Shown: positions 25,701 through 28,700 of the stretch, in pieces
How the letters are laid out: each line of letters opens with the position of its first letter
Position numbering within the stretch: position 1 is the first letter of the stretch
Source of the DNA: Anolis carolinensis
Lineage: Eukaryota
NCBI RefSeq assembly: GCF_035594765.1
Contig: NC_085844.1
Coordinates: 17,189,923-17,253,922, forward strand
Direction: 5' to 3'
DNA: 64,000 nt
Translations under genes and position numbers: made by a program
The notes under the pieces: model-generated
Seen by the model: only the letters and a program-made list of their open reading frames with translations
Database searches by the model: none
What the model was told of the DNA's origin: nothing

Positions 25701-28700
25701 CAGCACAACACAAATAAACTGTTAATTGCCTTCTTTTAGAACAGAAACGTCTTCCAACAATCTCCCATCAGGAGAGCAACAGAAGAGGAATAATATAGTG
25801 TGATAAGTCCTAATGTTATCCTGCTGTAATTGCAATGGGCTTGCCTTGTGTGATAAGGTCCTAAGCCACTCCAAAACACATTGGATTGAGGCAGGAAAAC
25901 ATTCTCGTTGGGAAGATCAGTTTCTTTTTCAGTAACTGTGAGTCACAGCTAAACTTAGAAGTTATGTCTGGCTATTCCTGCGCACTATGGTCAACTTTGT
26001 TCTCTCAGTTAGTCTATTAAGGTGCTACTACAAAATCCCTTTGCATACTGATATTCTGGGACAACATAGCAATGTTGTTCAATCATAAGATACATTCCTT
26101 GTGAGCATGAATAGCAGGAGGGGTATATCAAATACTTTAGTGCCCCCTGATAACTCATTCTTGAAACATAATCTTCTGACACTGAATATCAGCAAGGCAG
26201 AAGGATAACAGAACCACAGAACTGGAAGGAAACACAAGGGCCAACTAGTCCATCTTAAAGCAATCCTGAAAAAGGACCATCCAATCTCGGCTTAAAAAAA
26301 AAACTAAAAAAAAACGCCTCAAGGTTCTCTGAAGCATAAGGGTAGTTTTCTCATATTTCACTCTTTTTAAAATGTAAACCGATATTAATATATTTACATA
26401 GTGCCTAATTAGCTGGTGTTGCTTCTAGACAGAGCTGGAACAGGCCTTCACTCAAGATAGCATAAGCTTGGAATGTTAGTTTAAAAGAGTAAATTACTCA
26501 CTGCCGCTGGGAAGTGATATGCTAATGTTGTTCCTTAAAATAGCTATTTCTTGCACTGCTTGTTGTTATTAAATATTAAATATTCTTTCAAAATTGTTGC
26601 CTTCTTAAAATGTACTCAAAAGGCCCAAAAGGATTCACTCAAATGAGCCCCAAAAGCAACATTTCAGGAGGAATAAGTAAACATGAATTGTAATTCCTTC
26701 CCGAAAAATAATAAGGCTGCCAGTTATGCCTTTTTTGCAAACTGTGGTGCATGACCAGTTCATAATAATTCCTGTGTGCATCTCCCAATTCACACAGGCT
26801 ATGTATTAGTTTGCTTCTTCTTCTTTTTAAGACAGAAAGTAAGATCTTATCTGAAGCTGGCAGAATATAAAATCCCAAAAACACACTTACAAGAGGCCAG
26901 CTAGGAGGCAGAGTAGGAAAGCCTCCCAGAGCATCCCAATGGCTAATTGTTGGGCATTGGGGCTGGGGATCTGGAGCATTATCTTTGTGCTATTTGGCTA
27001 AACTATTGTACAAAGATGGATTAGATGCATCCTTGTATAATATCAGAAAAAGAAGTTACAGTAGTGTAAATCCCAGTTGTATTGATATAAGAACATAGAA
27101 AGTACAACCCATGAGCCTATGGTCCATCAAATTTACTTTAGTGACCCCAAAAACACTCGGAATCCTCCTTTTAAATTTTAAGTACAGTATTTATGGCAAT
27201 TTTCACTCCTGTCTCAAGCTCAGACCCACCTAAATGTATTAAAACTTGCCAAAAGTTATCCCCAGATATTCTGATCCCTCCGGCCCCACCCCCAAAAAAT
27301 ACCTCATGTTTGGATATATACCAGTCAAAGTGGTGACCAAAAGGAATATCTCATATCAGTTCTGGTAATAATTTTGACTGAATTATAGCCGAAACCAGAG
27401 ATATTTTTCTGCATCTCTGGACAGGTGCAGCCTGTGGGAAGATTGTGGGATCAACCCTTGGCACTAGGGTAAAGATAAAAGAGGACTCGAGACAGAAATA
27501 TCATTACTATTTGCACACACTGAGATGTATCATGCAAAAATATGACCCACTAGGAAAGAAAATAATGCTGTACAAAGTAGACGTTAGTAGGAAAAATAGG
27601 GGGACCACACTAGAGATGGATAGATCCCATCAAGAAAACTGCAACTTGCAAGGTCTAAATGTGACTATTGACAGGATGACATGAAGATCTTTCATTCATA
27701 AGGCCGCTATAAGTCTAAATGTCAACTTTGTGAAGATTTGTAAAAGAGGTACCATGATGTGGTGAGTTGACTGGAAAGGGCGTGTGTCGACAGCTGATTG
27801 GCTGAGTTAGTTAGGAGCCAGAATTCCAATTGGCTGCTGTCTCTAGCTTGGTGCTGAGACAGTTTTAACTGCCACTTTCATCTCAGAGAGGGAAGAGAGA
27901 AGCGGACTGGAAACAGGTCAGTGTGATGTCCCCTGAACCCTTGGGCCGTGATCCTGCCTCCATTATGGACCAAAGTGACGAGGAAATGGGGTTTGTGCCG
28001 ATTCAGCAAGACTCTGCCTCTTTCCAGATGCTCCCTATTGACAATTCTAGCCTACAGCTCATTAAAAAGGCCCTTGAACCGGAGCCTTCTCCCACCAGTT
28101 CCCCTCCCTTTGATAGACGGATGTTTTGGGAAATTAGTAGGTTTGAGAAAGCTGGCAGAAGAAGGAGCGCGCGATTAGCAGCTAGAGAATCTGCTGATTA
28201 ACCTGTTTTCCCCTGAGAATTCTCAGGGAGGATCGCATCTGGATGAAGATGTTGTTTTAGCTCTTTTCCCTTGGGAAAAGAGCATTTGAACACCTGCTCT
28301 GTGGAAAGATTTGAAGTTCCTTAAAAGTTCTGTGCGCTGGCTAGCCAGCGCGGAGTCAACGTGTCAGTTGAAGGATTAACTTCACTTCCAGCCAAGTGTG
28401 GACCGCGTTTGGATCCACTACCTTCCAGCCTAGCTGTGCCATGCCTAGCCGTGTTTCCGTGCTTTGCCTAGCCGTGTTTCCTTGCCTTGCCGTGCCGTGA
28501 ATCCAGCCTTGTCTTCAATTTCTTGCTTTTGAACTCTAGTAAAAGACTTGGATGTTTCCCCACTCAAACTGCCTGGAAGTTTGAGTGCGTTTTGGTTTTT
28601 TGGATTACAAACTTTAAACTCTAATATTAGACATTGGACAATATATTACTGGACTATATTTGACCTTTCCTAAAAGGTCTATTGATGAACTTTATCTTCT

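Follow-up and report, generated by a model that had tools for sequence, protein, structure and literature searches.

A long LTR-encoded Pol tail ending in a candidate nucleosome-binding motif in a chromovirus of Anolis carolinensis

Introduction

The core motif of HMGN proteins is RRSARLSA. Similar motifs have been described in the tardigrade protein Dsup (RRSSRLTS; PMC12480509, PMC12487698) and in yeast Dot5 (RRSARIAT), in which nucleosome binding is reported to need R1, R2, and R5 (PMC13347269). In the Dsup structure, the H2A-H2B acidic patch buries R1 and R5, R2 is held more loosely, and S3 forms hydrogen bonds, while HMGN2 engages via R2 and R5 (PMC12487698). The same study models a phosphorylated motif serine as repelling and cautions that AI predictions place HMGN wrongly on the nucleosome (PMC12487698). 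Acidic-patch arginine anchors in foamy virus Gag, KSHV LANA, and CMV IE1 tether foreign genomes to chromatin, and the foamy virus anchor steers integration sites (PMC9040877).

Among plant LTR retrotransposons, CRM group A has an integrase extension that is encoded by the 3ˊ LTR and carries a targeting motif, the CR motif, whose partner was given as unknown (PMC3059260). In Tal1 and EVD, a diverse integrase tail sets target choice, down to a single R/K position (PMC11735389). The locus described here lies in a window of 64,000 nucleotides from Anolis carolinensis (contig NC_085844.1, positions 17,189,923 to 17,253,922, forward strand), and it belongs to a lizard chromovirus whose LTR also encodes a tail of Pol.

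The solo LTR and its reading frame

The features of the LTR are as follows, in window coordinates.

27917..27921, + strand: left copy of the GTCAG 5-bp target-site duplication, read in the window
27922..28803, + strand: solo LTR of the Anolis chromovirus, TGTGA...TCACA, 882 bp, with genome matches at 91-100% identity
27926..28201, + strand: 91-codon frame, the LTR-encoded C-terminal Pol/integrase tail (from translation, full-length elements, and selection)
27968..28000, + strand: acidic segment and conserved M-G-F-x-P word, residues 15-25
28115..28195, + strand: helix predicted by AlphaFold2, residues 64-90
28160..28186, + strand: HMGN-like motif RRSARLAAR, residues 79-87 (from translation, conservation, and comparison with published motifs)
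28321..28326, + strand: putative TATA-like TTAAAA, about 25-30 nt 5ˊ of the predicted start; the sister LTR has TATATA there
28350..28359, + strand: GCGGAGTCAA, which is complementary to the primer-binding site in full-length elements and is predicted to act as self-primer and to begin R
28732..28737, + strand: AATAAA, the likely polyadenylation signal
28804..28808, + strand: right copy of the GTCAG duplication, read in the window

Translation of positions 27926-28201 (+) yields 91 residues followed by TAA, with the ATG at nucleotide 5 of the 882-bp LTR. Together with the TGTGA...TCACA ends and the flanking GTCAG copies, this bears out the intact frame in a solo LTR that was reported in the initial annotation of this DNA. 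The length of the frame alone is not unusual, since the window contains 80 stop-to-stop frames of at least 90 codons. Rather, the frame stands above chance because it is open across the LTR family. Stops or frameshifts of the family in this frame had been named beforehand as a sign against a coding role. In a genome search with the window LTR, which gave 40 scored matches at 91-100% identity, 25 of the 30 copies fetched are instead open to the family stop (one of them with an in-frame deletion of 12 nt), and five have early stops.

The positions of TTAAAA (28321) and GCGGAGTCAA (28350) place the frame wholly in the predicted U3, and R is predicted to begin approximately 150 nt past the stop of the frame. 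Because the frame is upstream of the predicted transcription start, the promoter of a solo LTR would not transcribe it. The 91-codon frame is most likely not a separate gene. The solo copy in the window is probably silent, it is likely that no protein is made from this stranded copy, and the frame in solo LTRs is likely a passenger that decays neutrally. The single solo LTR of the window is without importance by itself.

A second TG...CA element of approximately 490 bp, with TAAA on both sides, encloses the solo LTR (window 27720-29096). It is multi-copy by read depth and is probably a solo LTR from a different family that inserted earlier. Read-contig joints that skip the window LTR were also seen, although its flanks are repetitive and such joints therefore cannot show polymorphism.

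Sister LTR-1 and full-length elements

The window carries a second solo LTR of a sister subfamily, termed LTR-1, with a homologous frame that is open in 29 of the 30 fetched copies of the LTR-1 family.

10704..11554, + strand: solo LTR-1, with the target duplication CAGAA
10708..10962, + strand: homologous 84-codon tail frame in LTR-1

Whole sequences were fetched for two elements with paired LTRs of the LTR-1 type (L091 and L092). The L091 element has a frame of 1244 codons with matches to protease (PR), reverse transcriptase (RT), RNase H (RH), integrase (IN), SH3, and chromodomain (PF00385, E 2e-9), and PR-RT-RH-IN is the order in which the enzymes are present. This frame crosses the polypurine tract (PPT; ...GDSV) into the LTR frame and ends at the stop of the latter, and the Pol of L092 ends in the same way. 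The LTRs of the two pairs are identical at 863 of 869 and 849 of 855 positions, which indicates that the family is young. Contigs from runs X1 and X8 pass directly from one flank of the L091 element to the other (L091:311-6518), indicating that the insertion is absent in these samples and that the family was recently active. Relatives with window-type LTRs align to the L091 Pol at 68-88% per piece as far as the PPT, and in one locus (L124) the chromodomain adjoins a window-type LTR. All 11 attached copies retain the chromodomain positions F, W, and Y/F, which we take to be the aromatic cage.

At five of five junctions, the primer-binding site is complementary to GCGGAGTCAA in the element’s own LTR over 8-10 nt (10 nt in four LTR-1-type 5ˊ LTR junctions and 8 nt in the fifth), and the same self-priming site follows the window-like LTR of L195. 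Self-priming is a trait described for the Tf1/Sushi group (PMC6317226). Further features shared with this group are a Gag zinc knuckle, the PR-RT-RH-IN-SH3-chromodomain order, and the 5-bp duplication. By its domain order, chromodomain, and priming, the element is placed in the Tf1/Sushi group of chromoviruses (Ty3/gypsy). Membership in the CRM clade, characterized by the CR motif and tRNA-Met priming, does not fit the kept chromodomain and self-priming. In an RT tree built without a named reference element, and for which 5 of 34 selected rows lacked a usable RT, the RTs of Anolis group on a single long branch within those of frog and fish chromoviruses, with an unstarred link to the frog sequences.

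A first look at the genome gave 2893 LTR candidates with the frame, a figure that is not a copy number. Anolis Pol records in UniRef carry the tail as unannotated sequence. Seven chromodomain matches at a spacing of approximately 5.3 kb form a tandem array of the element (G000:C3:149049110-149081151). In three Anolis gene models (P0007, P0123, and P0124), the LTR tail forms the final exon, with the splice falling at the first base of the LTR. Such endings could reflect errors of gene prediction, or a chromatin-binding peptide that has truly been exonised.

Read-through of Pol into the LTR

In the sister subfamilies, Pol passes the chromodomain and the PPT and enters the 3ˊ LTR, where it stops after 84-91 codons. 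The chromodomain reads into the tail at all 30 LTR-1-type loci that were compared and the terminal stop is reached at 25; the loci were chosen by a chromodomain-to-PPT query, which biases the junction but leaves the tail part unbiased.

Pattern searches for attached copies of the window subfamily gave one locus each. In L124, the window-type LTR is attached to a chromodomain, but the element has lost internal sequence and its junction is out of frame. In this copy (L124:6050-7310), the 5ˊ LTR breaks off after 40 bases and continues, via a short word common to both sides, into the chromodomain region, followed by the PPT and the 3ˊ LTR; the target duplication is intact. A search with the internal DNA of this window-type copy returned 30 loci from several subfamilies, with 14 of 25 measurable junctions in frame. 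In the subfamilies nearest the window, the step from chromodomain to LTR breaks the frame at all seven Pol-attached loci (six of them independent), whereas 14 of 18 junctions in the other subfamilies are in frame. The out-of-frame spacings are 105, 106, 108, and 109 nt, as opposed to 107 or 110 nt, and the differences fall in G runs. Moreover, the five out-of-frame loci that were fetched whole have further stops and frame changes elsewhere in Pol. The out-of-frame junctions near the window subfamily thus most likely represent decay. Neither the pattern searches nor the search with L124 DNA found an in-frame Pol-attached copy of the window’s own subfamily. Hence, the earlier proposal that U3 codes for a long C-terminal integrase tail by way of the PPT is seen directly in sister subfamilies, and we infer the same read-through for the subfamily of the window.

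One subfamily begins with TGTAGTG, such that valine (GTG) replaces the ATG methionine while the tail is intact. This argues against a gene with its own start, even though ATG receives 0.82 of subfamily votes at this position. We consider it very probable that the tail is a functional part of Pol.

Selection on the tail

Of 135 LTR copies, 20 were dropped, and the 115 whose frame is full-length and includes the motif fell into 11 subfamilies; this filter preceded the pairwise, codon-model, and transition-weighted tests, and it inflates motif conservation. In all 55 subfamily pairs, which are not independent, pN is smaller than pS. Between subfamilies, the tail has a dN/dS of 0.36, with 0.30 in its acidic/MGF segment and 0.55 in the spacer. 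The value is 0.16 for the nine RRSARLAAR codons, whose conservation the filter inflates, and likewise 0.16 for another conserved word of 10 residues. Values of 1.02-1.13 are obtained in four shifted frames. The antisense frame whose third positions coincide with those of the tail gives 0.51, as expected for a shadow of the coding frame. An acidic segment had been singled out in the initial annotation, and it is indeed conserved, but mainly as an E-x-M-G-F-x-P word and not as a block of charge.

A check of dN/dS and of indel phase across subfamilies had been recommended at the outset, and both point to coding. A codon model of 25 copies from the 11 subfamilies gives an omega of 0.376, indicating purifying selection, with lnL of -2853.8 versus -2903.7 at omega 1 (2dlnL of approximately 100), so that omega 1 is rejected. 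In DNA-only alignments, 87 of 251 gaps in the frame are multiples of three compared to 154 of 953 downstream, although these counts are noisy and not independent. The window subfamily shows transition-weighted pairwise omega values of 0.42-0.61 against eight others. Third positions differ more (0.44) than first and second positions (0.32), and the second shifted frame has 6-14 stops per subfamily.

In the 48 between-subfamily pairs among the 11 attached copies, the SH3 and chromodomain region has an omega of 0.16 and the tail one of 0.27. The dS between subfamilies (loci L094-L153) is 1.31 for the LTR tail versus 0.49 for the SH3-chromodomain region just upstream, and the RTs are nearly identical, which suggests that LTRs diverge faster or have been swapped between subfamilies.

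Among LTR-1 variants, those common to at least three copies comprise 25 synonymous and 15 non-synonymous changes, versus 19 and 44 for private variants. The shared variants of the window family (8 synonymous and 14 non-synonymous, p 0.21) do not differ significantly. Private variants in solo copies look neutral, with omega-like values of 0.72-0.90. Overall, the tail is constrained during element replication, moderately across its length and with strong constraint at two words; copies left as solo LTRs drift.

Conservation and occurrence of the terminal motif

When weighted by subfamily, conservation at the motif is 0.99 for R1, 0.81 for R2, 1.00 for S3, 0.96 for R5, 0.91 for L6, and 1.00 for A7. 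Position 4 is free, and K is tolerated at position 2, where it occurs in two of the 11 subfamilies. Five different codons are used for R1, and thus the arginine has been recoded while the residue is constant. The tail, and above all this motif, is conserved as protein and not as DNA. A query that excluded the motif retrieved 30 loci, 21 of which are in frame to the motif. R[RK]SxRL is present in 18 of these 21; two of the remaining three loci stop at motif position 5, and one has S>R. Conservation extends upstream of the motif to F62, R64, and R72.

In the six frames of the window, R[RK]SxR[LI] occurs once, at 28160. Among 214,710 residues that precede the chromodomain in the retrieved Pol-bearing proteins, the pattern R[RK]SxR[LI]A has no occurrence. 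The shorter RRSxR occurs 27 times in the same residues.

Database searches with the frame returned little beyond the element itself. A Pfam search matched no family at E values up to 10, the ESM Atlas gave no usable match, and the matches of a PDB sequence search all have E > 0.3 and are attributable to chance. A profile search of 1.84 billion representatives gave two matches, both to Anolis element-derived proteins; no other squamate tail turned up among these representatives, in which repeat-derived proteins are poorly covered. The Pfam, profile, and PDB searches gave no homology to HMGN beyond the eight-residue core.

AlphaFold2, run on an 18-row alignment of the tail, models residues 1-60 with low confidence and residues 64-90 as a confident helix (pLDDT 83-92 over residues 61-90). 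In this prediction, R65, R72, K75, R79, and R83 would lie on one face as a basic stripe. The modelled helix would also suit DNA binding or a helical patch binder.

Tails of other chromoviruses

The Pol of fish relatives also enters the 3ˊ LTR. However, the fish LTR tails have only about 10-25 residues and often terminate in EPSP[ED][YF], in contrast to the 84-97 residues and R[RK]SxR[LI]A terminus of the Anolis tails. Fish elements, with P0037, P0151, and P0181 as examples, typically carry PRGRPRRR, followed by ...GGSV, a short LTR tail, and a terminal EPSP[ED][YF]. The PRGRPRRR sequence before the PPT is presumably an AT-hook-like word, and the lizard clade lacks it.

After the chromodomain, R[RK]SxR[LIVT] is found in 3 of 108 chromodomain proteins (two from Anolis and one from the frog Leptobrachium). 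In a second set, [RK][RK]SxR is found in 2 of 92 proteins (one more from Leptobrachium, and one from a catfish in which it precedes the PPT). Many of the 108 and 92 records are chimeric gene models. The Leptobrachium proteins P0016 and P0150 have an unrelated low-complexity tail after the chromodomain that ends in RRSPRLQA, which constitutes a second candidate anchor. The RT tree does not resolve a sister relationship between Anolis and the frog family with RRSPRL, and the two motifs may either share an origin or have converged. Most fish relatives lack the motif, which indicates that it is not required for chromovirus integration in general.

Proposed function and alternative explanations

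Our preferred reading, to which we assign a probability of roughly 0.55, is that the LTR encodes a selected tail of Pol whose terminal RRSARLAA would dock integrase on the H2A-H2B acidic patch. The tail would stay on the mature integrase, the chromodomain would read methyl-lysine on a histone tail, and the motif, approximately 120 residues past the chromodomain on a flexible linker, would insert R1 and R5 into the acidic patch. Chromodomain and motif could thereby act as a two-point nucleosome tether in target capture, and the invariant serine might permit release by phosphorylation, as proposed for HMGN. More tentatively, and with slightly less than even confidence, we suggest that the HMGN-type anchor together with the chromodomain forms a tether that was gained in lizard and frog elements in place of the fish AT-hook-like word, which would make acidic-patch mimicry a recurrent way of targeting in chromoviruses.

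The tail could be selected within integrase and yet end in a basic helix that serves DNA or RNA binding or nuclear localization, with its likeness to HMGN being convergent. The one-face arrangement of basic residues in the predicted helix 64-90 is compatible with such a role, as are the conserved residues F62, R64, and R72 upstream of the motif and the presence of two basic clusters 12-13 residues apart, as in a bipartite nuclear localization signal (NLS). It is also plausible that a DNA-binding segment replaced the PRGRPRRR word that lizards lack, and the 27 upstream occurrences of RRSxR show how readily such a word is found. Nevertheless, S3, L/I6, and A7 are fixed like the arginines and position 4 is free, which is the HMGN pattern and not that of a charge patch. 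Classical NLSs prefer a lysine, and the motif lacks one. For these reasons we regard the basic-helix explanation as a serious possibility, albeit an unlikely one. It is improbable that the tail of the window subfamily has become separated from Pol and is produced by itself in the manner of Nef or Sag, either by a programmed frameshift in the G-rich linker or from its own ATG on a spliced or read-through RNA. In favour of this idea, none of the seven nearest attached loci is in frame, and a one-base offset class is common to four of the six independent loci. The frequent ATG and the three Anolis gene models with the tail as last exon could be read in the same way. However, the offsets differ from one another and fall in G runs, and the five whole loci are decayed elsewhere in Pol. 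The ATG itself belongs to the LTR terminus, precedes the predicted start, and is replaced by GTG in one subfamily whose tail is intact, and the accessory protein that the initial annotation had offered as an option accordingly finds little support.

Two further explanations would deprive the frame of a role in Pol, and both have little probability. The frame might be open merely because the copies are young, with its conservation reflecting U3 promoter sequence. U3 contains regulatory DNA, and the near-neutral private variants of solo copies are in line with this idea, but it is largely refuted by the excess of third-position differences, the stops in the shifted frame, the recoded motif codons, and the rejection of omega 1, with the noisy excess of in-frame gaps that are multiples of three pointing the same way. 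Least probable of all is that the window’s solo LTR now serves the host as a small gene or as a coding exon. The LTR start does follow an AG, and in gene models at other loci the splice falls at the first base of the LTR. Yet the purine-rich upstream sequence makes a poor acceptor, this copy differs from its family by private amino acids, and it is nested in another repeat.

Comparison with known systems

The preferred reading of the tail as a chromatin anchor draws on its resemblance to characterized motifs. The lizard sequence RRSARLAA is identical to HMGN RRSARLSA at seven of eight residues, and RRSARIAA of LTR-1 is identical to Dot5 RRSARIAT at seven of eight. In the published studies, the residues that matter in HMGN, Dsup, and Dot5 are three tested arginines and a serine, and these are the conserved lizard positions, which upholds the earlier description of the motif as HMGN-like. 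The conservation pattern, judged from sequence, fits the Dsup register. A departure is the K at position 2 in two lizard subfamilies, where Dot5 and HMGN2 have arginine in the same accounts. The contexts also differ, because the HMGN motif sits in disordered sequence whereas the lizard motif is predicted to be helical and belongs to a retrotransposon enzyme.

Viral acidic-patch anchors provide a functional parallel, although those described in PMC9040877 reside on Gag or on a herpesvirus protein and are not of the HMGN type, whereas the lizard candidate is of the HMGN type and would reside on integrase. Tal1 and EVD show how an integrase tail can set target choice, but they are Ty1/copia elements of plants, and their tail is apparently not LTR-encoded (PMC11735389). 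The closest architectural parallel differs in a revealing way: the CR motif of CRM replaces the chromodomain (PMC3059260), whereas the lizard elements keep an aromatic-cage chromodomain and add a second motif.

Few LTR retrotransposon integrases have a known nucleosome grip. The thousands of LTR candidates that carry the frame represent a ready-made candidate chromatin tether scattered through the lizard genome. In the literature that was accessible in part, no retrotransposon integrase with an HMGN-type motif was found, although supplementary motif tables could contain one. It is therefore likely that the HMGN-type motif on a retrotransposon integrase is new, and that it combines two known themes, namely the LTR-encoded integrase tail of CRM elements and the acidic-patch anchors found elsewhere.
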